A DNA stretch of 27,027 bases from a virus (lineage: Duplodnaviria > Caudoviricetes): positions 1 through 27,027 of IMG/VR virus record IMGVR_UViG_3300020045_010365. One strand, 5' to 3'. Within the stretch, counting starts at the first letter, position 1, and each line of letters begins with the position of its first letter. Below are positions 923 to 25,733 of the stretch, piece by piece. The translations under genes were made by a program, and so were the position numbers. The notes beneath the pieces are model-generated. The model worked only from the letters and a program-made list of their open reading frames with translations, searched no databases and had not been told where the DNA came from.

Positions 923-953
923 TTTGGTAGTTTGGTAAAGTTTATTATCTTTG
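923..953 (+). promoter_or_regulatory. Bacteroidota primary-sigma promoter for the leader/tRNA array
   Basis: TTTG (923-926), 19 nt spacer, TATCTTTG (946-953): exact match to the -33/-7 consensus; ATG follows 4 nt later. Confidence 0.8.
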
Positions 954-957
954 GTGT

Positions 958-1041
958 ATGAAATTAAGAGCTCTACATCCGCAGCAACGCCAACCCAAAA
1001 TCGGGTTGCTTTGTCGTATGCGTGATATAGAGATTGGATAA
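958..1041 (+). CDS. Attenuator leader peptide MKLRALHPQQRQPKIGLLCRMRDIEIG (27 aa, probably leaderless)
   Basis: Not in the ORF track; codons 6-13 are CTA CAT CCG CAG CAA CGC CAA CCC; lies between promoter and terminator. Confidence 0.75.
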   Translation: MKLRALHPQQRQPKIGLLCRMRDIEIG

Positions 1042-1070
1042 ATATATTTCGAGCGTACTAAAGCAGCCCT
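971..1070 (+). promoter_or_regulatory. Attenuator alternative RNA structures (1:2 protector, 2:3 antiterminator)
   Basis: 1:2 = caaccc 991-996/gggttg 1003-1008 and ctcta 971-975/tagag 1028-1032; 2:3 = gggttgcttt 1003-1012/aaagcagccc 1060-1069 plus gtatgc 1016-1021/gcgtac 1053-1058. Confidence 0.75.
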
Positions 1071-1096
1071 TACAGAAATGTAGGGCTTTTTTATTT
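1065..1096 (+). terminator. Intrinsic terminator (3:4) immediately before the first tRNA
   Basis: agccct-taca GAAA tgta-gggct hairpin followed by a T-rich tract. Confidence 0.85.
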
Positions 1097-1169
1097 CGGG
1101 TAGTGACTATGGTTTAAGCACCCGTGCCTTGGAAGCATGGATTAGCAGGTTCGATACCTGTCTACCCGA
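1097..1169 (+). tRNA. tRNA-Pro(TGG), weak D-arm, A37
   Basis: Acceptor cgggtag/ctacccg, A73; anticodon arm cgtgc-CT TGG AA-gcatg; T-arm gcagg TTCGATA cctgt. Confidence 0.8.
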
Positions 1170-1170
1170 C

Positions 1171-1296
1171 AAAGAGTTGGTGAGGCTATCACGGAGTTTA
1201 GTGTAACGGTAGCACGTTATCAGTGGTGATAGTAGATGGGTTCGACTCCCGATCTCCGACAAACGAGGCGTCACTTCACGCCTACACCAACTCTTT
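1171..1296 (+). ncRNA. tRNA-like element (1192-1259) enclosed in a long terminal stem
   Basis: D-arm gtgt/gcac and T-loop TTCGACT are present, but the anticodon loop is 6 nt (ttatc AGTGGT gatag); aaagagttggtg-aggc (1171-1186) pairs with gcct-a-caccaactcttt (1280-1296). Confidence 0.55.
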
Positions 1297-1300
1297 TTAT

Positions 1301-1372
1301 TGCCATCTAACATAGCGGCTAATGTGCGGGGCTTTGAACTCCGATAGAAAGGTTCGATTCCTTTGGTGGCAA
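1301..1372 (+). tRNA. tRNA-Gln(TTG), A37
   Basis: Acceptor tgccatc/ggtggca; anticodon arm cgggg-CT TTG AA-ctccg; T-arm aaagg TTCGATT ccttt. Confidence 0.9.
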
Positions 1373-1377
1373 CAAAT

Positions 1378-1449
1378 GGTGTTTGAAGCATTAAGGTGAT
1401 GCGGTGGCCTGTGAAGCCATAGAAGTCGGTTCGATACCGTCCTTACACC
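1378..1449 (+). tRNA. tRNA-His(GTG), A37
   Basis: G-1/C73 identity pair; anticodon arm gtggc-CT GTG AA-gccat; T-loop TTCGATA; some U-U mismatches in the stems. Confidence 0.85.
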
Positions 1450-1453
1450 CAAC

Positions 1454-1535
1454 GCCGATATGATGGAACTGGCAGACATACTGGTCCTAGAAACCAGCGA
1501 GGCAACTCATACAGGTTCGACCCCTGTTATCGGCA
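1454..1535 (+). tRNA. tRNA-Leu(TAG), C33 and A37
   Basis: Acceptor gccgata/tatcggc, A73; long variable arm; anticodon arm ctggt-CC TAG AA-accag. Confidence 0.88.
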
Positions 1536-1538
1536 CAC

Positions 1539-1610
1539 TCCCTTTTAGTTCAAAGGATAGAATAGGAAGCTACGAACTTTCAGATACTGGTTCGATTCCG
1601 GTAAAGGGAA
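1539..1610 (+). tRNA. tRNA-Arg(ACG), A37
   Basis: Acceptor tcccttt/aaaggga; anticodon arm ggaag-CT ACG AA-ctttc; T-arm actgg TTCGATT ccggt. Confidence 0.88.
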
Positions 1611-1638
1611 CTAATAACTATTTTCGTAATTTCGATAA

Positions 1639-10954: not shown

Positions 10955-11290
10955 ATGAACAAAGTAGAGCCGTTAGAAGATCGCATTTTAGTTCGCCAAC
11001 TAAAGAAAAAAGAAGTTGAGAAAACAGATGGAGGGATAATCATACCCGATAGCGCAAAACGTGAGGTTGCCGAAGGAATTGTTGTAGCGGCAGGACAAGG
11101 CCGATATGCTGGCGATTCCGGTGTCTTTATACCATGTATGTTGGCTAAGGGGGACAAAATATTGTGCGGGGCAGAGAATGGCAAGATACGGGGGATGCCC
11201 GTTGACATTGAAGCTGAAGAAGGCAAGGAAGAATTAATTCTGATGAGGGAAGGAGACGTACTAATCCTAATTTCAAAAAAATCAGACTAA
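10955..11290 (+). CDS. groES: GroES/Cpn10 co-chaperonin
   Basis: PLEDRILV, KTDGGIIIPDSAK mobile loop, GIVVAAGQG, ILMREGDVL. Confidence 0.93.
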   Translation: MNKVEPLEDRILVRQLKKKEVEKTDGGIIIPDSAKREVAEGIVVAAGQGRYAGDSGVFIPCMLAKGDKILCGAENGKIRGMPVDIEAEEGKEELILMREGDVLILISKKSD

Positions 11291-11329
11291 TAGCGAAAAA
11301 TTTTATAATTTCGTACAAAGCCTAAACTT

Positions 11330-12172
11330 TTGACTTATCAACCTATTACGCAGGTACTTCTAAAAATTGAGGTAGCCCTTCAGGATACGCTTATAACTGA
11401 TTCAGGGTTAAAATTTTATCTAGACCCATCTTACGCCAAAGAGCAAAATGTAGCAGTATCAGCTACTATCGTGGCACTCCCAATAAACCCACTTCCAAAG
11501 CACAATAAAATAGTAAGTCGGCTAAAAGTTGGAGACAAGGTAGCCATAAGCTACGATGTGGTAGCCGACTTTAAATTCGCAGGCGATGGCAATAGATTCA
11601 TGCAAGCCACCGAAGACAATCCACATATAAAAGAGTTTTACAACGGAAAGGGCGAAACTGTCAGAGTATATGCTATGGCTAAACGTGCAGGATTCGCAGG
11701 TGTAATTTGGATAGGCGTTCATCTTGACAAAAGACGGGAGTTGATTGATGGTGTTCAAGGCGACGAATCCACGCTTGAAAGGTGGCTATGTCAATTTCCA
11801 TTCGGGAAAACAGACGTATATCAGTTCAATAACTTCTTTGAATATGACGGGAATGATTATTGGAAATGTGATCCTGACCAAATTTTTGCAGTAAAACGAA
11901 AGGGTCACTTAGTAGCAGTAGGAGATAGGATTATAACTAAACCAATTGACGAAGAAGTACCAGACCAATTTTTAATTAATGATAATGGCCTTGCAGAAAA
12001 GATAACCATGAGGCATAAAGATCGTGGAAGGGTTATATCGGGAGGAAAAGAAAAAGGAATTAAGAAGGAAGATATAGTGAGTTTTGAACCGCAGTTTATT
12101 GAAAAATACGACTTCTTTGGTCAGCAATATTTTCTAATCAAAGAGAACTTTGTTTTAGGTAAATGGAATTAA
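11330..12172 (+). CDS. Extended GroES-like protein, cassette A
   Basis: TDSGLKFYLD...ATIVALP...LKVGDKV and a second GroES-like C-terminal unit; TTG start; -7-like TAATTTCG at 11306-11313. Confidence 0.6.
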   Translation: MTYQPITQVLLKIEVALQDTLITDSGLKFYLDPSYAKEQNVAVSATIVALPINPLPKHNKIVSRLKVGDKVAISYDVVADFKFAGDGNRFMQATEDNPHIKEFYNGKGETVRVYAMAKRAGFAGVIWIGVHLDKRRELIDGVQGDESTLERWLCQFPFGKTDVYQFNNFFEYDGNDYWKCDPDQIFAVKRKGHLVAVGDRIITKPIDEEVPDQFLINDNGLAEKITMRHKDRGRVISGGKEKGIKKEDIVSFEPQFIEKYDFFGQQYFLIKENFVLGKWN

Positions 12173-12176
12173 AAAT

Positions 12177-12821
12177 ATGCCCAGAAACATCAATGACATC
12201 TATAATCTGACTAGGTATATTGTACGTAAGCAAAGGGGCGTATTCCTGACTATACCACAGTTCAATGACAATATGGATGCCGGACAGCTTGATGCTTTTC
12301 AAGAATGGTTTGCACCGTGGGGTGATTCTCAAATACTACATGACTCACTTCGCCCTTTCAGAGTTTACCATCAATTTACAAGCAATGCAGCAGGGTTCGT
12401 TACCTTCCCAGATAATTATGAACATCTTTTAGGAGCAGCATTTACCGTAACCGGAAGTACAATAAATGAAATAACATTTGTTAATGACAACGAATGGGTA
12501 TTTGCTATCAATAGCCAACAAAGACCAGTATCATTAAGCAAGCCAATAGCATTAGATACTAATGTTGGATTCAGCCTATACCCACAATCATTACAAATTG
12601 GATTCTTTAATTATTTAAGAAGACCTGCAACGCCATTGCTTTCTGTTACAACAGTTGGAAGGGCGCAAACGTATGACCCATTAACATCAGTTCAACTAGA
12701 ATGGAAAGATTCTTATGTCAATAATTTAATTGCAAAGGCTTTAAAATATGCAGGCGTTAATATGGATGAACAGGGAGTGTTAGCATTTGCGGAAGCATAC
12801 GATCAACAAACTAAACCGTAA
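12177..12821 (+). CDS. Putative tail ring/adaptor protein A1
   Basis: YLRRP motif, size and position before the muzzle gene resemble crAss-like ring proteins; paralog of 24369..25052. Confidence 0.6.
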   Translation: MPRNINDIYNLTRYIVRKQRGVFLTIPQFNDNMDAGQLDAFQEWFAPWGDSQILHDSLRPFRVYHQFTSNAAGFVTFPDNYEHLLGAAFTVTGSTINEITFVNDNEWVFAINSQQRPVSLSKPIALDTNVGFSLYPQSLQIGFFNYLRRPATPLLSVTTVGRAQTYDPLTSVQLEWKDSYVNNLIAKALKYAGVNMDEQGVLAFAEAYDQQTKP

Positions 12822-13357
12822 TGGAAAATTGGAAAGACATAATCGGGTATGAAGGACTATACATGGTTAGCGATTTAGGGAATATTAAAACCCTAAAAAG
12901 AGAGTATTTTACCGGAGAATACTATTCTAAAAGAGTTATACATGAACATTTACTTGTTCCAGCATTAGATCAGAAGGGATATTTAAGAATTGGGCTATCA
13001 AAAAACTCAAAGAATACAACACATAAAGTACATCGGATAGTTGCGATTGCCTTTATTGAAAATAAAAGTAACAAGCCACAAGTAAATCATAAAAATGGTA
13101 TTAAGTCCGACAATAGGGCTTTAAATTTAGAATGGGCAGATAATTCGGACAATCAAATACACGCATTTAAACATGGGCTTAATGTGGCAAGAAAAGGAGA
13201 AAATCATTCGATGTCTAAACTATGCGAGGCCGATGTATTGAAAATAAGGGGTATGTATATATCGGGAAATACACAAACAGAAATATCTAAAATTTACAAT
13301 GTAACACAGGCTAACATATCTGAAATAGTAACAAAAAAATCGTGGAGCCATATATAA
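12821..13357 (+). CDS. NUMOD4-HNH homing endonuclease with C-terminal HTH
   Basis: ENWKDIIGYEGLYMVSDLGNIK (NUMOD4); VHRIVAIAFI...VNHKNGIKSDNRALNLEW (HNH). Confidence 0.92.
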   Translation: MENWKDIIGYEGLYMVSDLGNIKTLKREYFTGEYYSKRVIHEHLLVPALDQKGYLRIGLSKNSKNTTHKVHRIVAIAFIENKSNKPQVNHKNGIKSDNRALNLEWADNSDNQIHAFKHGLNVARKGENHSMSKLCEADVLKIRGMYISGNTQTEISKIYNVTQANISEIVTKKSWSHI

Positions 13358-13358
13358 T

Positions 13359-14033
13359 ATGTCAACTAAAAAGCAAATATCAGAATCAATATTATTTAAA
13401 TTAGCAGGTGGCTATCCTACTAAGTCGTTTCCTATCCACGAAGAAGATATATGGTCATCATTAGAGCAAAAGATAAACGCAAAGTTTGCAATGAAGCAGT
13501 TTAGCGTTAACCTGCCAAGTGGTGAAACGATTCCCGATAACCTTGCATTAGCTACTTACGAAGATATAGTTGTTACTTCAGTTTATTCCGGCAAGTCAAA
13601 AGCAACGCTTCCCGTAATGCCAATATCGCTACCCAAAAATGCAGGCATTAACGAAATAAGACCCGTTTTAAATCAAGTACCAACAGGGGATAAAATACAT
13701 GGCGACCCGATGGTTCAGATTATAGCAGGGCAAGATTTTCTATTAAAAGCAGATACTTTACTAAATGATTTGTTGGGGCAATTCGGCTATACACCAAAGG
13801 GACGAACGATTTATTTCAATAAGGATTTAACGACATTAAACATTACAAAGGTAGATATGTGGTTAGTGGTTTTGGATATGTCACAATATGGAGTAAATGA
13901 TTTGTTGCCAATACCAGCAGATTATGAAGCAGAATTGGAGGATGAGTTGATACAGGAATTTGCGCCAGTAGTTGCAAAAACAGGTATAGTAAGCAATTTT
14001 ACAAATCCATCACAAGCACCAATTAAACAATGA
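13359..14033 (+). CDS. Putative tail ring protein A2
   Basis: Paralog of 23674..24366; position in the tail operon. Confidence 0.6.
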   Translation: MSTKKQISESILFKLAGGYPTKSFPIHEEDIWSSLEQKINAKFAMKQFSVNLPSGETIPDNLALATYEDIVVTSVYSGKSKATLPVMPISLPKNAGINEIRPVLNQVPTGDKIHGDPMVQIIAGQDFLLKADTLLNDLLGQFGYTPKGRTIYFNKDLTTLNITKVDMWLVVLDMSQYGVNDLLPIPADYEAELEDELIQEFAPVVAKTGIVSNFTNPSQAPIKQ

Positions 14034-14806
14034 CAACAATTTCATTAGATCAGATTGTAAAAAATATTATACTTAAAAGAGGGTATAGTTTCCCTCATTG
14101 GTATTTGAATTTCCTTGTGCCTGCTAAAGATTGTTTACGTCAGCTTTCAATGGACTTGCCTATTAGTCCTGTTCAATATAAAGTACTTCCCCTAAATACA
14201 AACCATGCTATTGCTATCCCGGATGATTATGTAGATTGGGTAGGAGTATACGCAAGGCGTGGGCAATACTTAGTACCATTAACGGAAGATGATAGTTTGA
14301 GTTTAGTTCCCAATTTCGATAGTGAATTTGTTATTCAGCCATTCAGTCAAGGAATAGCCACTGATACATCAGCAGAAGCAACAGCATATACAGGAGCATT
14401 AGGAAGTTATGGACTTATGGTGAACTGGAATGAATTTGGAGAAAACTTAGGAAGGCAATTCGGAGGCGTTGGCAGTTTTAGCGACACATTCAGGGAAAAT
14501 AAAAGGCGAAATGAAATTAAGATAAATGACAACTTATGTATTAGCCATTTCGTTTTGGAGTATATAGGTAATGGACTTGACGTTGATTCGGCTTCAAAAA
14601 TAAACGCATATTGCCAAGACGCTATTGAAGCCTACTGTATGTGGCAGTTTAAAGAGAACAACAGAACATATTCAGCAGGCGAAGCACAAGTAGCAAAGAG
14701 AGATTATGAACAGCAGGTAACGATGTTACGTGCAAGGATTTCCGATATAACAGTAGATAAACTCAAAAGGATTGTTCAGCGTAATGCAATCGGGGTAAAG
14801 TATTAA
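14030..14806 (+). CDS. Putative tail ring protein A3
   Basis: IPDDYVDW and LEYIGNG motifs; directly precedes the muzzle gene; paralog of 22910..23674. Confidence 0.65.
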   Translation: MTTISLDQIVKNIILKRGYSFPHWYLNFLVPAKDCLRQLSMDLPISPVQYKVLPLNTNHAIAIPDDYVDWVGVYARRGQYLVPLTEDDSLSLVPNFDSEFVIQPFSQGIATDTSAEATAYTGALGSYGLMVNWNEFGENLGRQFGGVGSFSDTFRENKRRNEIKINDNLCISHFVLEYIGNGLDVDSASKINAYCQDAIEAYCMWQFKENNRTYSAGEAQVAKRDYEQQVTMLRARISDITVDKLKRIVQRNAIGVKY

Positions 14807-14809
14807 TAT

Positions 14810-17800
14810 ATGCCAATAGAAAAGCGTTCATTTTTTGAGGGAATGGATGGCGACACAAGCCAAAGGCTACTTTCAGATAAAGTAGCTTTGAACATTATGA
14901 ACGCACGTATGGCGATTAGTGAGTATGGTAGAATGGGAAGATTGGAAAATACTCCCGGAATGTTATACGTTCCACAATCTGTTATACCTCCTTATGGCGG
15001 CGATCAAACAATAGGAACAGCAACCGATTTGAATAATGGAAGATTGCTGTGGTTTAATTATAACGATCTTTCAAACAATGGTATTTATTGCTATGACCCA
15101 AATGTAGGGACAACAGGAACAGTATATGCGGTTGTTTATGACAGCCAAGTTGTAGGGGGATTGGGATTCAGCAGAGATAGCTTAATACATTCTGCAAGAG
15201 TTGAAAACGGGTATTTGTATTGGGCTGACTCAACTAATAATGAACCAAGAAGAATAAATATAAATTCTGGCATAGAAGCTAATCATCCCGGAACATTTAC
15301 AGATACATACGCCTATACATTTCCAATGAGGCAAAACGTATTATATTGGATAAGGAGACAGCCGGGATTACCACCAAGTGCAGTTAAAATAGATGATTCG
15401 GGGGTAGTAAATAATCTTATTAAAGATGAAGGTTTTTGGTTTGCATACAGATATATTTATCGTGGGTATGAAATTTCTACATTATCTGCATGGTCGGAAT
15501 TACTAAACTATAATTCAATAGACGAAACATACAATTCAATAACGATTGAAATACCGTTACTAGAATATATTGACCAAGATGTATTGCAGGTTGATGTAGT
15601 AGTTAAATACGCCAATGGGGGCAAAGCATTTGTAATAAAATCATGGAATAAAAATATAGCTATTGATGCAGCCGATATAGCTAACCATAATGCAGGTTCA
15701 AATAATCTTGACTTTAACTATGCCAATGATTTTATAGGCATTGCACTAGATGATGCTTATTCAGTAAAGCCATACGATAGTGTACCAATATATGCCCAAA
15801 CAATAGAGATGGCAAGGAATAGGTCATTGATGGGGAATTTTGTAATAGGGTATGATACGCCAACCGAAACCTCATTATTGGTAGAGGCCAATATACAAAC
15901 AGATTCAGCGACACCAACAGGAAGATGGGTGTCTATTACTTATAACTTTGGCGCAAACGTTCACTACTTCTTAGATGTTCAGGGGCTTGCTTCTGATAAT
16001 GGATATTACGATTATACTCCGCAGCCGCCAGCATTTCCAGCTACGGTTGCATTTGGGTCAATGACATTTGTAGCAAGTGGGCCTTCAAATTTCGCCCTTT
16101 ATGTTGTAGCCAATTATCCCGATTGGACAGGAGGTATTGTTGATACTGGGAATGTTTCTGACATAACAGGTTCGCCACCCGTAGCGGGTTTATCAGGATC
16201 AGAAGCATTAAAAAGCGGGGGTTCATATTGGGCTTCCATTAGTTTTTTAGACCATGCAGGAAGAAAGTGTGGTATATTAACCAAGCCAGAACTAAAAGTA
16301 GATATTGCTGAAAGAGAATATGCCCAAGTAGATTACACTACAGGTATTAATTGGACGTTAAATAATTTAAGTGCTGTTAATGAAATACCTGAATGGGCGG
16401 CAGCATACTCAATTGATATTACTAAGTGTTTAACAACAAGGTATTTTTTACAATCAAAGGTTAGAAATATTACATACGTTACAAAAGTAGTGGCTGATGG
16501 AACGTATGTATTCAATACTAACACATACGCAGCTACGTTAAACGGAGTTGGTATTGATATAACTCTTTTGAACTCATATGGCATGGGCTATGTATTTTCA
16601 GAAGGAGATTTTGTAAAAGTTTACATAAGTACTAGCATTTATACTTTAAGCGTAGTTGCACAAGATGGTAATTGGATTGTTTGTGAACTTCAGGATTTGG
16701 GAGCATTAGGTAATACTGGAACTCCAAAAACAGATGTATTGTTTGAAGTTTTTACCCCTTACAGGCCGTCATCTTCCGAAGCTCATTATGAAGTTGGACA
16801 AATCTATCCAATAGATAATCCCGGAACATTAAGCAGAGAATATTCTACATTGGCAGGAACGATAGGTGGTGATATAACTCTTTTAACAAGAAACGATGGG
16901 AGCGCCGATTATCTTACTGAAAATATGTCTCCAAATGATAAATTCTATCAAGTATGGAACACAGATTCAGGGAGGCCTAATTTCGTTGATGATATTGGGC
17001 AGCAAACAAAAACAAACTATATAGCTTATAGTGATGTATATATTCAGGGGTCTAAAGTAAATGGTCTATCAACTTACGAAGCATTAAATCAATCAGACAC
17101 GCCATCAGAATGTGGCGATTTAACAAAACTACAAACGGCGAATAAGGTTGGGGATGAACAAGGGGGCATATTATTAGCCATTCATCAGCATGAAGTAGTA
17201 TCTATTTACTTGGGGGAAGTTCAGTTGGTTGGGGCATCGGCAAACGCTTTTGTCGCTCAATCTGCCGGATTCATAGGAACTAAAAATATTTTAAAAGGTT
17301 CATTCGGAACAACAAGACCAGAAAGCGTATTTGAATATTTGGGATTAGTGTTTGGCATTGACTTGAAGCAGGGCGTTTTCTGGCAATATTCAGCAGGGGG
17401 CTTAGAGCCAGTAAGCCGGTACAATCAATCAAGGTTCTTTAAGAGGTATTGCATGGATTATTTAGCAGCATCTTCCGGTAATTTGGATAACATAAACGGG
17501 TTTCACCACATACGGGCAAACATTAATCCTTTTACAAAAGAAGTGTTGGTAACATTGCCTGCACTTATCTATGAAAATTATGCCGATGTATTACCAAGCT
17601 ACGGTGGTATAGTCCCAGATTATGCCACTTCAATAATCAATAGATTCGACATATTCGACCAGCTTCAAAAAACAATGTCATTCCAATATGAAGAAAACAA
17701 ATGGGGTAATAACTATGAATGGATTGCAGAATGGTCAGAGTACTTGCAGAACCAAGCCTATGCCTTTAAAGACGGGTTTTTATATATCCTTGACAGAGAT

Positions 17801-18226
17801 ACCGAAAACTGGAATAATGCCTTCGGAGTTAATTACCCTGTTCGTATTTGTATAACAGGTAATCTTAACCCATCGGCATTAAAAGTATTGAATAATATAT
17901 CCCTTGAAAGCAATGCTATCCCTGACTATACAGTAGCTTATACTGATTACCCAAATATTCAAATAACTGACTTGGCGGGAACCGACCCTGAATGGGTAAA
18001 CGAAGAGGGATTAATGTATGCCGACTTTTTAAAGGATAGATTAAGCCCTAATTCTATCGGAACGCCGGATGAAAAACTGTTTATCGGAGACGACCTGACA
18101 GATATAGTATTGAAGATAATGGTTGAGTTTCAAGCGTATGATAATTTATTTTATTGTAATTTTATAGATATTGGGTACAGTATAAGTAGAGGACAAAAGC
18201 AAATACTCAATCCTATTAACACCTAA
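14810..18226 (+). CDS. Putative tail muzzle/stabilisation (nozzle) protein A, 1138 aa
   Basis: GMDGD...NARM...GRLEN N-terminus, LYWAD..NEPRRINI, FAYRYIY...S.LS.WS and LKVLNNISLES motifs, as in crAss-like muzzle proteins. Confidence 0.75.
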   Translation: MPIEKRSFFEGMDGDTSQRLLSDKVALNIMNARMAISEYGRMGRLENTPGMLYVPQSVIPPYGGDQTIGTATDLNNGRLLWFNYNDLSNNGIYCYDPNVGTTGTVYAVVYDSQVVGGLGFSRDSLIHSARVENGYLYWADSTNNEPRRININSGIEANHPGTFTDTYAYTFPMRQNVLYWIRRQPGLPPSAVKIDDSGVVNNLIKDEGFWFAYRYIYRGYEISTLSAWSELLNYNSIDETYNSITIEIPLLEYIDQDVLQVDVVVKYANGGKAFVIKSWNKNIAIDAADIANHNAGSNNLDFNYANDFIGIALDDAYSVKPYDSVPIYAQTIEMARNRSLMGNFVIGYDTPTETSLLVEANIQTDSATPTGRWVSITYNFGANVHYFLDVQGLASDNGYYDYTPQPPAFPATVAFGSMTFVASGPSNFALYVVANYPDWTGGIVDTGNVSDITGSPPVAGLSGSEALKSGGSYWASISFLDHAGRKCGILTKPELKVDIAEREYAQVDYTTGINWTLNNLSAVNEIPEWAAAYSIDITKCLTTRYFLQSKVRNITYVTKVVADGTYVFNTNTYAATLNGVGIDITLLNSYGMGYVFSEGDFVKVYISTSIYTLSVVAQDGNWIVCELQDLGALGNTGTPKTDVLFEVFTPYRPSSSEAHYEVGQIYPIDNPGTLSREYSTLAGTIGGDITLLTRNDGSADYLTENMSPNDKFYQVWNTDSGRPNFVDDIGQQTKTNYIAYSDVYIQGSKVNGLSTYEALNQSDTPSECGDLTKLQTANKVGDEQGGILLAIHQHEVVSIYLGEVQLVGASANAFVAQSAGFIGTKNILKGSFGTTRPESVFEYLGLVFGIDLKQGVFWQYSAGGLEPVSRYNQSRFFKRYCMDYLAASSGNLDNINGFHHIRANINPFTKEVLVTLPALIYENYADVLPSYGGIVPDYATSIINRFDIFDQLQKTMSFQYEENKWGNNYEWIAEWSEYLQNQAYAFKDGFLYILDRDTENWNNAFGVNYPVRICITGNLNPSALKVLNNISLESNAIPDYTVAYTDYPNIQITDLAGTDPEWVNEEGLMYADFLKDRLSPNSIGTPDEKLFIGDDLTDIVLKIMVEFQAYDNLFYCNFIDIGYSISRGQKQILNPINT

Positions 18227-18835: not shown

Positions 18836-20356
18836 ATGGCAGAAGCAGGGTATAATGAAAGTTCGGTAGTTCTACCATCCATGTTTGGCGACCCCGGTTC
18901 GGCAATGGAGAATGCTTTGAATAGAAAGCAGCAGGACAAACGGTTTGATTATCAAATACGGAAGGAAAATGAAATGGATGAGTGGCGCAAATTGAATCTT
19001 ATTCAAGACCTTACTAATTTAGACAAACACCAAACAGGAAGTGATGTAGCTAATGCCATAGGTAATAAACAAGCATCTTCCATACTTCAAAAATATACAG
19101 CAGCAGCAAAGAAAATGTCGCCAAGTGAATTGTTGGCTAACGTTCAAAAAGATATGCAAGGAACGATTACGGGAATGGAGGCGATGAAAAATGAATTGGC
19201 GATTTCTGATGAACAACTTAAAGTATTAAAAACTCAATTCCCTGAGTTAGATATTTCTTCATTGGCAAAAGACCATAGAGCAGATATTTTAAATAGGAGA
19301 ATAAAAGACGATGAAGGGTTTGTTAATCCTTTAGAAGTAGGGCAGTCGCAAGTTGATTTTAGCAATCCTGAATTTTTAAGCCGGTATGCAACGGGGAATA
19401 AAAACTTATCGGAAAATATCATCAACCCAAAAGGACTAGAAGACACAACGGTACTAACAGGAAGTCCCGATTCAAATACAAAGTGGGCATCAAAAGTCCC
19501 TTTTTGGAAAAAACCAAACTTTGAACAAGAGGCAATGAAGCAGGGCTTTTTAGGCAAAGACTTTATACCTAACTTAGAACTAAAGAGTACGACTATCCCT
19601 GCCGATGCGTTACCATCATCAAACGGGAAACCATTTGAAGTAATTGATAGAGAAGTGTTGGATAGATTTACACAAGATGGAAAAATGAATTTGGAGTTGA
19701 TTGCAGCAACAAGAGATAAATTTCCTTCCTATGATAACTTCAACCAAACAGAAAAAGAGTATGCAAAAAGAAACGTTCTGCATGACCAAATAAAAGCATT
19801 AGACCAAAGCAACTTCCATCCGGTAGAAAATAGACGGCCAGCAAGAACGACAGTGAATGTAAGTGGTAGTGGTGGTGCAAACCCAGATGCATTGATAAAT
19901 AAAGTTTATGAAAGGATTAATAGTAAAATAGATTATGATTTAGGAAGAGGATTTAATGCAACAAGGTATAACGCATTAGAAAATGATGGGCAAGAGGTTG
20001 TTAAAAAGGCTGTCGAAAATGCAGGGTATGAAGTAGGGGAAGGTGGCGAGAACGTATTTATAAGAAAAGATAGTGCGGGAAATATAAGGGTATATCGCAC
20101 TTCTGAAGGTGGAAAGTTACTGGCTAACCCAGAAAATGAAATAGCCACACTTTCATATACTGGAACTAATTTACCAAAACAAGCAAACGTAAGAGGTAAA
20201 GTTGAAACTGTTGAAAAAGGAGAAACGGGCAAAGCGATAACAAAGCCACCGCAGCCTGCTGATGATGGATATACAAGAGATGAATTGAAAAAAGCAGGGT
20301 GGACAGATGACCAAATAAACAAAGCACAAAAAGCAGGGAAGATAAAAGTTAAATAA
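18836..20356 (+). CDS. Putative ejection (cargo) protein
   Basis: Likely start MAEAGY at 18836; helical and hydrophilic; position in the module. Confidence 0.65.
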   Translation: MAEAGYNESSVVLPSMFGDPGSAMENALNRKQQDKRFDYQIRKENEMDEWRKLNLIQDLTNLDKHQTGSDVANAIGNKQASSILQKYTAAAKKMSPSELLANVQKDMQGTITGMEAMKNELAISDEQLKVLKTQFPELDISSLAKDHRADILNRRIKDDEGFVNPLEVGQSQVDFSNPEFLSRYATGNKNLSENIINPKGLEDTTVLTGSPDSNTKWASKVPFWKKPNFEQEAMKQGFLGKDFIPNLELKSTTIPADALPSSNGKPFEVIDREVLDRFTQDGKMNLELIAATRDKFPSYDNFNQTEKEYAKRNVLHDQIKALDQSNFHPVENRRPARTTVNVSGSGGANPDALINKVYERINSKIDYDLGRGFNATRYNALENDGQEVVKKAVENAGYEVGEGGENVFIRKDSAGNIRVYRTSEGGKLLANPENEIATLSYTGTNLPKQANVRGKVETVEKGETGKAITKPPQPADDGYTRDELKKAGWTDDQINKAQKAGKIKVK

Positions 20357-22241
20357 TGGGGAAGTCTATAAGACAAATACCGTCTTGCGCTACAATAGAA
20401 AGTGTGTAAACGGTTGCGTCACCATCAATATATACTTTTACCAAATCTCCTTCAGTAAAAACATACCCCATCCCATAGCTATTTAATAATGTAATATCAA
20501 TAGCAACTCCATTCAAAGTAGCTGCATAGGCACTTGTATTAAAAACGTAAGTCCCGTCAGCGACAACCTTTGTAGCGTATGTTATATTCTTAACTCTGGA
20601 CTCTAAAAAATATCTTGTTCTTAAGCATTTTGTAATAACGATAGAATATGTAGTTGCGTAATCTGGTATTTCGTTTATTGCATTACTGTTTATAAGAACC
20701 CAATTCAGCCCTGTAATAAAAGTTATTTGTGTAAATTCTCTATCTGGTGTTTTATATATTTGGAAATCCGATGTAAGTACACCGCATTTTCTATCCCCAA
20801 AATCTCCAAATTTTATTCCTATCTGATAGGAAGCATCAGTTTTAAATGAAGTAGCTCCCGTCAATGACACTGGACTTATACCTGTTATTTCAGAAGTATT
20901 GCCAGTATCAACAATACCTCCTGTCCAATCGGGATAATTAGCCACTACATAAATAGCAAAATCGGCTGGGCCTCCTGCTACTTTTGTTAAATCACCGATA
21001 GCGACAGATATCGGGAATGGCGGCGGTTGAGATATTAATGTAGTATCATAAAATCCGTTATCCGTTCCAACATCCTGAATATCTAAAAAATAATGCACAT
21101 TAAGCCCAAAATTATAAGTAATACTAACCCATGTACCTATAACAGTAGCCCCTTCAGAATTAGTTACAAAAGCAGCTTCTAAAGAAGTAAATACTGGTGT
21201 ATCATATCCAATAACATTGTTCGCTAAATAAAGCCTATTCCTTGCTACGTCTAATGTTTCACTTATAATCGGTATACTTTCAAATGGTTTTACTACATAA
21301 GCCCCGTCTAAGGCTTCTCCAATTTTATCATTTAAAAAGCTATACGACAATAATGTTACTCCGTCATTGTGGGCTTGAATTTCCGCTGCATCGGTAGGGT
21401 TATTTTTATCCCAAAAATTAGCAACAAAAAACTGAAGGGTCTCACCATATCGAACTACTAAGTCAACTCTTTGCACATCTTGATCTATCTTTTCTTCTAA
21501 TTGAAAAACAACATCTATTCTATTATAATTATCAGAGGATATATTATAATTTGCTAACTCGCTATAAGTGGATAGTACAGAAGTCTCACCATCCTTATAA
21601 TAATATCTTGCACAAAATTGAAAGGCTCCGTCTTTTATAAAATTATTAGTTAATGCTGGAACTGTTTGCCATACTTTAGATATTTGCAAAGGCAGCAATG
21701 GAGGTCTTTTTAATAGTGAAATTACTTCCTCATTTAAAGGATCAGTATAGGCTTCGGTATCTGGAAATGTACCCGGATGGTTTAAGTTTATTCCTGCATC
21801 AATATTTACTTTCCTTTGCCTATTTAAGTTATCCGTCCAGTATAAAAGCCCGTCTACTACTCTTGCGCTATGGATAGGGTAGTATTTATCAAAGTTTAAT
21901 CCACCAACTACTTGTGCGGAATAAAGAACAATGTATGTAGTTTGATTGGCAATATCCCAACACTCTATTCTATCCCAAGGCCCATGAACGTTCTTTTTGA
22001 AATATAAAATTCTATCATTTTCCGCATCTTCAACAGCCCCTAATTCAATAAAAGTAATAGAAGGTTCAGGAGTTGATAAAAGTAAGGTACTTCCAATGCT
22101 TTCAACTGTTCCTGTTACTCCTGCATCTGTGCTGCCAGTTCTGCAATTTTCTTTATTTATAAAATCGTTTATTTCAACTGCAAAGGGGGCATCGTCAAAG
22201 TTGCCCTTACCATCAGAAAAATATTTTCTTTCCATTTCCAT
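20349..22241 (-). pseudogene. Muzzle paralog B, C-terminally truncated (630 aa)
   Basis: Colinear with roughly the first 620 aa of 14810..18226 up to VAQDG, then 9 unrelated residues and a stop. Confidence 0.75.
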
Positions 22242-22909
22242 TACAAATACTTATAGCTTGTTTTGTTTGGCAGATACCCTCTTAAACAACCAACAAAATG
22301 ATTTATATTATACCCGGCGAATCTTGCCGCTGCCGCTCCTGAAGGAAATATTTCTCCTGTTTTTTCGTTTATAACTTTTTTAGCACTTGGCGGTATCTTT
22401 CCTTTCTTAGCAAGAGATTGTTTTCGTCTGGTTTCATCGCTTGCTTTTTTACCGGTTCTATGACTCTTTTCTCCCTTCGTTGCTAACGATATGTTTCTTT
22501 TATGCTCTTCACTAATTGGCTTCCCCTTTTTAGCCAAAGATTGTTTCATTCTTGTTTCATAAGAATGCGTAACTCCTTTTCCACAATGATAGCCGCCCGT
22601 ACTTAAATTAACCAACATCCCATTTGCATGAATCCCTCTCATGCCAAAAAGTTTTATTAAATGAGCTTCTAAATAAGTAGCCTCATGTTCAAATAAGTGA
22701 GACTTATATACCTCTACTATTGGCTTCCCATATTTATTCACATACGCCTTCCATCTTGGAGACCTGCTCCCCATGTGTCGTGACCTTTTTTCGTCTCCAA
22801 TCCCTACATAGAAAATCTGTTCAGTATTTGGGTTTCTGTGTATATAAACAACATAATCGTTTTTATCTCCACGCATTTTAGTTGTAAAATATTTATGCTT
22901 TTGTTCCAT
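22241..22909 (-). CDS. GIY-YIG-type homing endonuclease with NUMOD3/NUMOD1-like repeats
   Basis: YVVYIH...IFYVGIG...R, LE..LI, LVNLSTGG; repeats HSYETRMKQSLAKKGK and SDETRRKQSLAKKGK; TGEIFPSGAAAAR. Confidence 0.88.
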   Translation of the reverse strand: MEQKHKYFTTKMRGDKNDYVVYIHRNPNTEQIFYVGIGDEKRSRHMGSRSPRWKAYVNKYGKPIVEVYKSHLFEHEATYLEAHLIKLFGMRGIHANGMLVNLSTGGYHCGKGVTHSYETRMKQSLAKKGKPISEEHKRNISLATKGEKSHRTGKKASDETRRKQSLAKKGKIPPSAKKVINEKTGEIFPSGAAAARFAGYNINHFVGCLRGYLPNKTSYKYL

Positions 22910-23674
22910 CTATGACTTCATTGCGGCTGTATAACTGTTCCTAATTATGTTTAGCACATCAGTACGAGTGAGATCATTTAAGTTGGCTCGAAGATGCCTC
23001 CTTGCATTGTAATAAGAAGCCCCTTCAGGGGACATATCAATACCTGCATTTGGGCTACTCATCCAATCAATATATCTCTGTACACAATTAAATGCTTGCA
23101 TATCTACTTGGCTTGCATTGTCTATACTTTGGCCGTCTGAAATATACAGTAGCACTACATTTGAGCCTTCAAAAATAAAATCCTGCGTTAATTGAATTTG
23201 CCGTCTTTCTTTGAATAACTGATAGCCTGATTGAGTTCCACCACCCTGACCAAAGAATCTTCCTGTTGGTTCTCCAAAATCATTTACATTCCAAAAATAT
23301 CCCCATCCTCCGGGGAATCCCCAAACAGTTTGTTCGCCCCTATCTTCATCTACCAATTCATTGTATGGCTCAAATGCTCCTGTTGTTGGATTGTTTATTC
23401 TAATTGGCGTTAACCAATCTTGTTTTGGTAGTCTATGAAGTTGGTCTCCCGATGGGATACATACAGCCAAATCGTCCATGAAATCCCCCGGCGTATCAAA
23501 AGCACCATAGCTATTAACTGGCCTGTTTACAGCGTTTATAATTCTTAAAGTGTCTTTAGCTAAATTTCTGATACAGGCGGCAGCATGAAATAAATATTCA
23601 GCGTACCACTGCATAGGCATCCCTTTTTCTAAAAGGCTGCGGCGAACAATCATATCAATCGTTGCAAACGTCAT
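22910..23674 (-). CDS. Putative tail ring protein B3
   Basis: NDFGEPTGRFFG and YISDGQSIDNAS align with NEFGENLGRQFG and YIGNGLDVDSAS of A3. Confidence 0.65.
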   Translation of the reverse strand: MTFATIDMIVRRSLLEKGMPMQWYAEYLFHAAACIRNLAKDTLRIINAVNRPVNSYGAFDTPGDFMDDLAVCIPSGDQLHRLPKQDWLTPIRINNPTTGAFEPYNELVDEDRGEQTVWGFPGGWGYFWNVNDFGEPTGRFFGQGGGTQSGYQLFKERRQIQLTQDFIFEGSNVVLLYISDGQSIDNASQVDMQAFNCVQRYIDWMSSPNAGIDMSPEGASYYNARRHLRANLNDLTRTDVLNIIRNSYTAAMKS

Positions 23675-24366
23675 TAATTTTGTTGTTGTTGTTTAATCGG
23701 AACGTTCTTTTGCGCCTTGACAGTACTATCAACCAACTTGTCTGCAAGTGGCTCCTCGCTATACATTTTGAATATTTCTTGTTTTATCTGCCACTCAATT
23801 TCAGGAGTGATTGGTAAAATATCATAGTCGTCATAAAGCGATACATCCATAATAGCAAGTCGCATGGCTACTGTTATTTCGGGGAACTGCAATTTTATAT
23901 CTTTTGTAAAGACAACTTCGTTCCCGAATACCTCATACCCAACCTGACCTAATAAATCGTTAATCATTAATTGAGACTTAATTAACCCAGCTTGCCCCAT
24001 TTGCAATGGGATGTACTCGTTGTCCAAATCGTACCGTCTATCAATGTTTCGGTATTTTGGGTATATAGCAAAAACTCCCATGTTACGTGGAAGTTTTAAT
24101 GGTTTAACAGGGAGTGTACATTTGCTTTTCCCGTTGTATGAAGTAACTGCAATATCTTCATACAGCCCTAATACTGAACCGTTTGGTATCATTTCCCGCA
24201 TTGGGATATTGACTTGCAGGTACTCCGTTTTTAGCAACCCATTCGCCACCTGCCCGATTGAAATTTTCATTTCGTTCAGGCTTATATCGGTTGCTACGGG
24301 TGGATCGCCGCCACTCAATAGCTTCAAACATTCTTCAGCAAGTCGGTATATAGTGACAACTGCCAT
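23674..24366 (-). CDS. Putative tail ring protein B2
   Basis: YEDIAVTS..GKSKCTLPVKPLKLPRN and NDLLGQVGY align with A2. Confidence 0.6.
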   Translation of the reverse strand: MAVVTIYRLAEECLKLLSGGDPPVATDISLNEMKISIGQVANGLLKTEYLQVNIPMREMIPNGSVLGLYEDIAVTSYNGKSKCTLPVKPLKLPRNMGVFAIYPKYRNIDRRYDLDNEYIPLQMGQAGLIKSQLMINDLLGQVGYEVFGNEVVFTKDIKLQFPEITVAMRLAIMDVSLYDDYDILPITPEIEWQIKQEIFKMYSEEPLADKLVDSTVKAQKNVPIKQQQQN

Positions 24367-24368
24367 AA

Positions 24369-25052
24369 TTATTCTCTTATATTACCTTGAAAGTTTTGGC
24401 CGCCTTTTGTTTTGCTCCACTGCATAATATCTTGCTCACTTATATTTATTCCAATAGACTGTAAAGCAAGTATATATACCATGTTTTGATCCTTTTCCAA
24501 CCATTCTAATTCTGTTGAATTATCGGCGTCATATACTATAACCCTTGCGCTGATCGTTGTATATGCAAAGTGTGGCGCAACCGGCCTGCGAAGGAACGTT
24601 ACCACCCCTGTATTTGCTTCGGTTGGCCAAAGACGAATGAATCCGGGGGCAGCCATTTCCCCAATAGGGCTTGTTAGCGTTACTGGATCAAGTTGGGAGT
24701 TTAGCCTTTCTGACCGCTCATCCTCGTTTACCATTGCTACGGCAGCGTACCTTATACCTCTACCGCTTATGGTGTAAGTAATCCTAACGTCCAATAAATC
24801 AAGGTAGTTGAGATTTGATGGGACTGAAATATACCCTGAAACGGTATCGCTTGGGCTAAATTCATAGGTAGCCCTAAATGGAGAGAGTGAATCTTTTATC
24901 CTTTGAGAAGTAGCGTAGCGTGGCTGAAGGTTGGAGTAAAGCGTCATTTGACCCCTGTCAACAATGAGGTCAAGTTCTTGCATCGTATAAAACGATCCCA
25001 TTTCTTTATTGATCCAGAAATTTAGGAATTGGTAACCTTCGGCTAAAGTCAA
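24369..25052 (-). CDS. Putative tail ring protein B1
   Basis: SQ...DSL.PFR, LRRP and LEW shared with A1; TTG start; minus-strand -7 element TAATTTTG at 25069-25076. Confidence 0.6.
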   Translation of the reverse strand: MTLAEGYQFLNFWINKEMGSFYTMQELDLIVDRGQMTLYSNLQPRYATSQRIKDSLSPFRATYEFSPSDTVSGYISVPSNLNYLDLLDVRITYTISGRGIRYAAVAMVNEDERSERLNSQLDPVTLTSPIGEMAAPGFIRLWPTEANTGVVTFLRRPVAPHFAYTTISARVIVYDADNSTELEWLEKDQNMVYILALQSIGINISEQDIMQWSKTKGGQNFQGNIRE

Positions 25053-25085: not shown

Positions 25086-25733
25086 TCAATTTAACAAAGC
25101 AATTTCTTGATAAGTAGGGATTTCTTTGCCTAAAATGTCCTTTTCTTTGACAATTCCGAAAGGTTTTCCGCCGATTTGATATAACTGAATCTTGTTTGGG
25201 GCGAAGTAAACCCTGTCCATTGGCTTTAAACTGTGATTATTTTTGCTAATGTTTGATATTACCGCCGTAGAAGCGGCATTGGATTTTTTAGTTTTGGCAT
25301 CCAAAATAATGATTTTGGGAGCTTCCATTTGCTCCACCATGACGTACCCGTTTTGCATACGGATTTCCCCGCCTCTTATGACAGCGAAAAGATAAGTGAT
25401 ATTGACTGAAAAAAACTCCTCCCCTTTGTAGGTTATTAAGTTTTTGAAAATCGGGTCACGGTTATGGCTTCTTTGAATCCTTGAAGATATTACTTGGTAG
25501 CTAAAAATAGCCGTATCTCCTTCATAAATGTCATGGGTGGAAAATCCTTTGTAGTCTTTTGTGTCACTTATGGCGATTGGGACACTTACTACCTCACCAA
25601 TGATATTAACATAATCCGATGGGTCTATTGTTGAACCATTTTGAATAGCTGACACTTTTAACAAGTCAGTCATATTAGCTATGTACTTTGTTTTTACTTT
25701 TATTAAAACTTGATTAGTTGGTGATTGTAGCAT
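25086..25733 (-). CDS. Extended GroES-like protein, cassette B
   Basis: PTNQVLIKV, GEVVSVP, EGDTAIFSYQV and VKEKDILG align with 11330..12172. Confidence 0.55.
   Translation of the reverse strand: MLQSPTNQVLIKVKTKYIANMTDLLKVSAIQNGSTIDPSDYVNIIGEVVSVPIAISDTKDYKGFSTHDIYEGDTAIFSYQVISSRIQRSHNRDPIFKNLITYKGEEFFSVNITYLFAVIRGGEIRMQNGYVMVEQMEAPKIIILDAKTKKSNAASTAVISNISKNNHSLKPMDRVYFAPNKIQLYQIGGKPFGIVKEKDILGKEIPTYQEIALLN

Follow-up and report, generated by a model that had tools for sequence, protein, structure and literature searches.

Why should a phage place a short open reading frame (ORF) and a transcription terminator in front of its own tRNA genes? The question is raised by positions 923 to 1,610 of a 27,027-nt stretch of viral DNA (Duplodnaviria; Caudoviricetes; IMG/VR record IMGVR_UViG_3300020045_010365, positions 1 to 27,027), here called the window, in which a promoter, a 27-codon leader ORF, a terminator and five tRNA genes follow one another (Table 1). 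An initial annotation had read this locus as a phage attenuator that appears to sense the decoding of C-starting (CNN) codons and controls the matching tRNAs. Every one of these elements was found where it had been placed, and comparative tests, namely CNN-rich leaders in homologues, covariation of leader and array, a locus-specific 2:3 helix and a modelled flip of the switch, support the attenuator interpretation. Judged by its sequence and recurrence, the cassette is a real, conserved regulatory module whose leader and terminator very probably act by ribosome-coupled attenuation. We also consider the full mechanism likely, in which the attenuator would make tRNAs with A at position 37 (A37) when the host tRNAs with G at that position (G37) fail, most likely because a nuclease has cut them.

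The leader and its putative sensor run

The ATG at 958 lies 4 nt past the -7 box TATCTTTG of a Bacteroidota-type promoter. Since transcription in Flavobacterium johnsoniae, according to the available text of the source of the consensus (PMC6847099), starts 4-5 nt downstream of this box, the start site is predicted at or beside the A of the ATG, and the mRNA would then be leaderless, a point overlooked in the initial annotation. The box stands exactly 4 nt ahead of the start codon in 35 of the 43 box-bearing leaders among the 71 leaders examined.

Leader codons 6-13 are CTA CAT CCG CAG CAA CGC CAA CCC, and the amino acids they specify are the same five as those of the downstream tRNAs. The eight consecutive C-starting codons reported earlier form the sole run of this length in the six frames of the window, with two runs of seven; at the C-starting fraction of the window (~0.15 in long stop-to-stop frames), the chance of such a run is ~5e-6 per 27-codon ORF. 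A relative from another metagenome (run X4, one contig, depth 3) carries an in-frame CTT insertion inside the run together with a change of CTA to CTT, and the frame is kept.

Table 1. Coordinates of the cassette features in the window
Feature	Position	Strand	Description and basis
Promoter, Bacteroidota sigma-ABfr-type	923..953	+	-33 TTTG at 923-926; 19-nt spacer; -7 TATCTTTG at 946-953; sequence
Leader ORF, 27 codons, predicted leaderless	958..1041	+	MKLRALHPQQRQPKIGLLCRMRDIEIG; sequence
1:2 hairpin, predicted anti-antiterminator	971..1032	+	-24.1 kcal/mol, z -5.6
Sensor run, eight CNN codons (L H P Q Q R Q P)	973..996	+	codons 6-13 of the leader
2:3 antiterminator, predicted	1003..1069	+	1003-1013 with 1059-1069 (11 bp); extension 1016-1021 with 1053-1058
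Intrinsic terminator	1060..1096	+	GC stem, GAAA loop, U-run; -12.3 kcal/mol, z -3.3; ends at first base of tRNA-Pro
tRNA-Pro(UGG)	1097..1169	+	loop CTTGGAA, A37; cloverleaf-like fold z -2.4; descriptor search; metagenome copies
tRNA-like RNA	1171..1295	+	between Pro and Gln; long terminal stem; -47.2 kcal/mol, z -4.0
tRNA-Gln(UUG)	1301..1373	+	loop CTTTGAA, A37; ARAGORN, Rfam
tRNA-His(GUG)	1379..1450	+	loop CTGTGAA, A37; ARAGORN, Rfam
tRNA-Leu(UAG)	1454..1536	+	loop CCTAGAA (C33), A37; ARAGORN, Rfam
tRNA-Arg(ACG)	1539..1611	+	loop CTACGAA, A37; ARAGORN, Rfam

Recurrence of the cassette

Viral contigs, genomes and metagenomes were searched with patterns that require a U-run followed by tRNA-Pro(A37) and are blind to the leader. 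Leaders were then picked by position and start context only, and were called CNN-rich when at least 5 of 8 codons were CNN. The viral set consists of the 79 of 84 unique loci that had a well-supported first tRNA-Pro, which yielded 51 clusters having both a leader candidate and two or more tRNAs; the metagenome set holds the 77 Pro-first loci of 109 matches and the control set the 93 non-Pro-first loci of 106, loci with less than 170 nt upstream being excluded. Arrays are the union of the calls of three tRNA programs, among which a few wrong calls remain that are expected to add noise rather than signal. Here and below, genome, metagenome, viral and control counts are counts among the matches listed, i.e. 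at least the numbers given.

Homologous arrays do carry CNN-rich leaders, which were present in 48 of 79 viral loci versus 18 of 207 chance matches (p 5e-19), and in 50 of 77 metagenome loci versus 3 of 93 viral control loci in which the terminator precedes some other tRNA (p 1e-19). A Gln-His pattern, which does not select for Pro, returned 43 viral loci, and a CNN-rich leader stood directly ahead of a Pro-first array in 7 of them. The description as a phage attenuator holds for phages but is too narrow, as the cassette is also carried by bacterial contigs without phage genes: it lies in a prophage-like contig of genome G002 and in non-phage contexts in genomes G001 and G003. The genes that neighbour the cassette vary, and it therefore looks mobile. 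The host was assigned from the type of promoter and from the presence of homologous cassettes in three genomes of Bacteroidota; the DnaB and one virion protein of the window pointed to no informative host, and the GenBank phages yielded single tRNA matches alone and no relative of the cassette.

Three further carriers are worth describing. 1) In G003 (L500 12260-14714; G003:C5) the cassette occupies a small island beside tRNA-Arg(CCU), flanked by HNH and methyltransferase-HIT genes on the upstream side and by tRNA-Phe and RtcB on the downstream side. 2) A group of GC-rich phages (L175, L190, L236) pairs an RtcB-like gene with a leader of 10 codons, rich in those for Arg, Pro and Gln and overlapping the approach to the terminator, ahead of A37 tRNAs for Pro and Gln; this is a compact version, perhaps from outside Bacteroidota. 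3) The cassette phage G158 encodes Acb2/Tad1-like and Tad3 anti-defence proteins (L892 7733-8212 and 12410-13063).

Matching of leaders to arrays

Leader codons were found to covary with array anticodons, as the initial annotation had expected. Array amino acids occurred in their own leader in 200 of 226 cases versus 159.3 +/- 4.6 after shuffling (51 clusters), and those outside the CNN row in 34 of 49 versus 16.9; in 40 new clusters from metagenomes the corresponding values were 156 of 183 versus 122.5 and 50 of 66 versus 24.1. None of 20,000 shuffles reached any of the four values, against which it must be set that the clusters share ancestry and that such permutation p-values overstate their independence. 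Glu was present in the leaders of 11 of 13 arrays with tRNA-Glu versus 6 of 31 without it, and Tyr in 5 of 5 with tRNA-Tyr versus 4 of 38 without. The proposed rule of five CNN amino acids thus stands for the window and needs refinement elsewhere: the general rule is matching of leader to array, Glu, Tyr, Ser and others being gained by both together. Leaders matched to arrays outside the CNN row (Trp, Cys, Phe, and broad sets of 10 tRNAs) were also observed (L708, L712, L717, L705, L647, L687, L784, L800, L817, L819).

The sensor Arg codons comprise 26 CGN and 4 AGR, versus 631 and 509 in flanking frames (p 3e-4), and CGG, which tRNA-Arg(ACG) is not expected to read, is absent from them. The covariation and this choice of CGN without CGG argue for tRNAs, and not the peptide, as what is sensed. 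An attenuator of the classical multivalent kind, responding to amino-acid starvation, or an arrest by the nascent peptide would have the architecture of the his/leu/ilv leaders, and uncharged tRNA would stall the ribosome on the run as well; yet extra tRNA brings no relief for a shortage of amino acids, the five amino acids have no common pathway, Arg within the run is CGN rather than AGR, and the leader peptides are conserved in composition and not beyond, which makes these explanations very improbable.

A probable switch set by the position of the ribosome

The three helices proposed for the leader RNA, 1:2, 2:3 and 3:4, were all recovered and are far more stable than shuffled sequences, none of 200 shuffles being as stable as the 1:2, the 2:3 (1003-1075; -26.9 kcal/mol, z -4.8) or the terminator fold. 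The antiterminator duplex of the window (-17.7 kcal/mol) is stronger than the pairing with any of 50 other terminators. Likewise, across the viral clusters the own pairing reaches -13.6 kcal/mol versus -8.9 with foreign partners and is among the best 10% in 33 of 51, and in the metagenome clusters -13.9 versus -9.4, with such a rank in 19 of 40. In an alignment of six relatives the antiterminator is present in compensatory versions, so that the 2:3 helix suggested for the window proves locus-specific across cassettes. Two metagenome runs, each from a different study, carry a coupled pair of substitutions in the terminator stem (1072 A>T, 1081 T>A), and in one run the loop reads GAGA instead of GAAA. 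Searches of 850-2100 gave no match to a T-box or to the Rfam leader families (E <= 10).

The antiterminator strand begins a median of 13 nt (interquartile range 11-17.5; 71 leaders) past the first base of the last sensor codon, and ~13 nt is about the position of the 3' edge of a ribosome. For the window, the fold was modelled with a ribosome footprint of 12 nt while the A-site codon was varied along the leader. In the nascent RNA, the antiterminator had a probability of 1.0 for A-site codons 2-12 and, once the terminator was complete, still 0.87-0.90 for codons 10-12; from codon 13 on, the terminator had a probability of 0.98-0.99. The modelled switch flips at the end of the CNN run.

According to these folds, RNA polymerase would start at the leader AUG with a ribosome following. 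When the CNN codons are read fast, the ribosome would pass codon 13 and cover 1003-1013, and the terminator would close ahead of tRNA-Pro. When they are read slowly, the ribosome would linger at codons 6-12, 1003-1013 would pair with 1059-1069, and transcription would enter the array.

Several observations weigh against this model. At full equilibrium, a ribosome must stand at codons 10-12 (in part also at 9) for the antiterminator to prevail, and for codons 6-8 the model requires that it forms before the 3' arm of the terminator exists. The 1:2 hairpin, strong in the window, is not general (own pairing in the top 10% in 14 of 51 cassettes). The bias in Leu codons is weak (40 CTN to 24 TTR, p 0.03), and the use of TTA does not significantly track the presence of tRNA-Leu(UAA) (p 0.10). 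No CNN-rich leader was picked by the rule used in 31 of the 79 loci, and one cassette (L030) has a leader with 11 CNN codons but no clear terminator. In a few arrays a working leader is missing, as the L278 family has none, that of L284 is fused to the upstream gene and that of L273 has no ATG. Such arrays would fit an untranslated ORF, a terminator that belongs to the upstream genes and tRNAs transcribed by leak-through. This explanation is extremely unlikely, given the fixed spacing from promoter to AUG, the indels that keep the frame, the codon bias, the leader-array covariation and the locus-specific antiterminators.

The A37 set and the host G37 class

All five anticodon loops of the window end in A37-A38, a feature overlooked in the initial annotation. 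The first of the five, tRNA-Pro, is degenerate, being missed by ARAGORN and scored by Rfam at just 21 bits, as tRNA-Sec; near-identical copies with few differences are present in metagenome runs X1-X6. In G001 and G003, two Bacteroidota genomes with tRNAs retrieved nearly in full, the housekeeping tRNAs with G37 are those for Pro, Gln, His, Leu(UAG, GAG) and Arg(ACG), with Arg(CCG) added in G001. The ProRS of the hosts is of the archaeal/eukaryotic type. Among the Bacteroidota genomes with a real match, a G37 copy was found for Gln in 51 of 51, Leu(UAG) in 58 of 59, Pro(UGG) in 32 of 32 and Arg(ACG) in 34 of 46 (61 genomes searched), and for His in 14 of 15 (151 searched), after exclusion of one chance match each for Leu and Pro. 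As read from these tRNA sequences, the "CNN row" amounts to the Bacteroidota tRNAs with G37, a class of which the phage carries a G37-free copy.

In the cassettes, position 37 past the first Pro is A in 88 and G in 7 tRNA-Gln, A in 67, T in 4 and G in 9 tRNA-His (some thus escape G37 via T37), A in 46 and G in 1 tRNA-Leu(UAG), and A in 48 and G in 6 tRNA-Arg(ACG). Against A37 in the host, T37 occurs in some cassette tRNAs for Glu (3 of 30) and Asp (4 of 8), a hint of a second pressure on this position.

The array provides one A37 tRNA for each host G37 class, except for Arg CGG. With A37, four of the five loops would lose the G36-G37 motif, and all five would do without methylation by TrmD. 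The A37 copies would thereby evade the damage, bring decoding back and shut off their own synthesis.

What may disable the host tRNAs

If the locus is an attenuator, an anticodon nuclease is on balance the favoured trigger, loss of N1-methylation of G37 (m1G37) is a good deal less probable, and some other cause is rather improbable. RtcB is encoded directly beside the cassette in L274, L186 and G003, and also, judged by the C-terminal sequence of the protein, in the L175 family. A chromosomal operon of G002 (L635; G002:C248:55-5943) combines genes for WYL and Ro60 proteins, two Y-RNA-like RNAs, A37 tRNAs for Pro, Arg and Leu, and RtcB, and no leader was seen in it. In this host, G37 occurs in the tRNAs for Pro, Arg(ACG) and Leu(GAG) (a housekeeping Leu(UAG) was not found), whereas those for His and Gln have A37 to begin with, and the A37 set of the operon appears to mirror the G37 class of its host. 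A precedent for such a nuclease exists, as VapC-mt11 is described as cutting Arg, Pro, Leu and Gln tRNAs after G36-G37 (PMC6459853), and the Salmonella RNA repair operon is described as responding to cut tRNAs, with YrlA proposed as a nuclease decoy (PMC7790460).

Other facts speak against a nuclease, or against a selected A37 set. RtcB adjoins the cassette in only 4 of the 51 clusters (one of them judged by C-terminal sequence). The available account of VapC-mt11 reports that a change of G37 to A only shifted the cut in tRNA-Pro by one base in vitro (PMC6459853), and the phage Pro(UGG) keeps G35-G36. The first Pro was chosen for A37 by the search pattern; moreover, host tRNAs of the kinds that are added (Glu, Tyr, Ser, Leu-UAA) also have A37, and G37 does not explain all that is sensed.

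The same attenuator could instead signal the loss of m1G37, through inhibition of TrmD or a shortage of S-adenosylmethionine (SAM) or Mg2+, with the A37 set as a bypass independent of methylation. The core tRNA set is the class of TrmD substrates of the hosts; Pro comes first in each of the 7 leader-bearing loci returned by the Gln-His pattern, although that pattern does not require it, and closes the sensor run in 29 of 71 leaders; and A37 lifts the need for methylation of Pro, whereas its GG persists. Pro is reported as the most m1G37-sensitive tRNA in E. coli, limiting without TrmD (10.1101/2022.05.14.491930), and m1G37 loss as derepressing the leuL attenuator through CUA codons (PMC8384417), in the parts of these papers available. 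However, neighbouring RtcB, Ro60 and Y-RNA-like genes suggest that RNA is broken, the added Glu, Tyr and Ser tRNAs are not TrmD substrates, and no anti-phage targeting of TrmD was found in the literature searched. In addition, mature host tRNAs are already methylated at the time of infection. We therefore hold the methylation account as a whole to be unlikely, although it deserves more weight than the explanations that follow.

A trigger set by the phage itself was also considered. No SAM lyase, PIN toxin or TrmD Pfam family was present in the 41 window proteins or in 140 of 189 cassette-phage ORFs (four phages, the ORFs of G154 being among those left out), a weak negative as most ORFs belong to no family; a self-inflicted trigger was rejected on this basis, and the lack of SAM lyase and TrmD also counts against the methylation account. 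Nor did the sensor appear to be derived from a host leader upstream of trmD, as no CNN leader with a terminator was found in any of the 30 loci retrieved from 61 genomes. Upstream of 50 chromosomal rtcB loci there was likewise no CNN leader or tRNA, and five carry another leader-terminator; these host regions (L600, L603, L604, L605, L606) have a conserved leader of ~27 codons that starts 124-135 nt before the U-run and shows no CNN bias.

The leader might also serve a general control of supply, sensing any shortage caused by phage demand or by slowed translation, A37 being the usual loop of phage tRNAs. Large arrays have leaders in which many amino acids are represented (L708, L712, L705), A37-A38 loops are frequent in large phage arrays, which also counts against a nuclease-evading set, and the host rtcB operons show a similar leader-terminator geometry without CNN bias. 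Against this, the demand of the phage for CNN tRNAs is not high because C-starting codons make up just ~15% of the codons in its long frames, the recurring set of five tRNAs coincides with the host G37 class, the repair-operon set of G002 omits His and Gln, both A37 in that host, and His loops escape G37 also by T37. General supply control is thus improbable, and replacement of a damaged G37 class is the reading we prefer.

The tRNA-like RNA and other features of the window

The RNA between tRNA-Pro and tRNA-Gln, likewise overlooked in the initial annotation, lacks a normal anticodon loop. It contains a tRNA-like domain (1192-1261) with a Pro-type acceptor start, a D arm like that of host tRNA-Gln and a 6-nt "anticodon" loop, and in run X5 two paired positions have changed together (1220 T>C, 1229 A>G). 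Its fold, with the tRNA-like domain set in a long terminal stem, fits a Y RNA, and the 6-nt loop resembles that of Yrn1, suggesting that it may be a Y-RNA-like decoy. It did not match the Rfam Y RNA models RF01053 or RF02553, the permuted elements of relatives matched YrlA weakly and below the cut-off (E 0.09-0.24), and Ro60 (TROVE) was matched neither by the 41 window proteins (the record being ~35% complete) nor in 5 cassette phages. The element of the window is unpermuted; the second slot of relatives holds permuted, anticodon-less tRNA mimics in the order of YrlA (L272, L273, L194, L242, L225), and elsewhere structured RNAs that share a motif (L019, L165, L234, L286; L284, L308; L203, L291).

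Directly 3' of the array lies a lipoprotein-like ORF (1639-2028) without a family match, which may be co-transcribed upon read-through, followed by a hairpin (2033-2060) between converging genes. The record is linear and encodes virion, DnaB, NinG and GroES-like proteins. Three genes are GroES-like (10955-12172 and 25086-25733), and virion genes occur in two sets that nearly parallel each other, one per strand (12177-18226 and 20349-25052).

Significance

If the proposed mechanism is true, phage tRNAs gain a regulated, on-demand role, which bears on why phages carry tRNAs at all. It predicts an activity against G36-G37 or m1G37 tRNAs in Bacteroidota, for which the 140-nt switch is a ready reporter. 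TrmD is treated as essential and is pursued as an antibiotic target (10.1101/2022.05.14.491930, as far as available), and the cassette suggests that natural A37 tRNAs could bypass it. It is a tentative but serious possibility that Bacteroidota and their phages are in conflict over the G37 class: an undescribed host defence would disable all CNN-reading tRNAs at once, and phages and genomic islands would answer it with a portable module made up of a leader that is a barcode of the attacked tRNAs, a G37-free set and a tRNA-mimic decoy. Given that leaders covary with their arrays, they may tell which tRNAs come under attack in uncultured hosts, and under such a conflict their sequences would form a readable catalogue of the tRNA-targeting defences of these hosts.

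Comparison with known systems

The initial annotation knew of no described phage example, and our literature search, from which subscription papers were largely absent, found neither attenuator control of phage tRNA arrays nor a set changed from G37 to A37. The nearest class is that of the leader-peptide attenuators, to which hisL, trpL and thrL belong. With leuL and ilvL as described in the available text of PMC8384417, the cassette shares a short ORF with control codons, 1:2, 2:3 and 3:4 helices and an intrinsic terminator, and both of these are reported to respond to m1G37 loss. It differs from them in that its output is tRNA genes rather than enzymes, its control codons follow a tRNA class (G37) rather than a pathway, its leader is predicted to be leaderless and its 1:2 helix is not conserved. 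The cassette fits the features of an attenuator by its ORF between promoter and terminator, its control codons matching the output and its exclusive helices one footprint away, as judged from computed folds and covariation. We would therefore describe it as multivalent and leader-peptide attenuator-like, and, because the gated genes are tRNAs, as falling outside the amino-acid biosynthesis class.

Phage tRNAs reportedly allow escape from PARIS and retron Ec78. The window tRNAs differ from those of the host at position 37 (A37 versus G37), a candidate nuclease site. In this they resemble the phage tRNAs that evade anticodon nucleases (PMC10264068), where altered anticodon loops have been suggested or demonstrated to rescue translation; the available part of that paper mentions no promoter or sensor, whereas the cassette replaces a whole class at one position and has a codon-matched sensor. 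As to the nuclease, the in vitro substrates of VapC-mt11 (Arg, Pro, Leu, Gln) and its GG site match the replaced class, but it is a mycobacterial toxin with only two targets in vivo, by the available account (PMC6459853), and no Bacteroidota counterpart was identified here.

The cyanobacterial trn L-array (PMC8421152) is likewise a silent backup tRNA operon that is induced on impaired translation and co-regulated with rtcB. It has direct repeats at its promoter and 26 tRNAs, and the paper makes no mention of attenuation, in contrast to the five tRNAs of the cassette behind a leader and a terminator. The rsr-yrlBA-rtcBA operon with RtcR (PMC7790460; YrlA, PMC4201824) is, in the portions available, also a response to cut tRNAs with a Y RNA proposed as decoy, and the A37 tRNAs of G002 lie inside such an operon. 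There the sensor is a protein that binds tRNA halves, whereas in the cassette it is predicted to be the ribosome on the leader.

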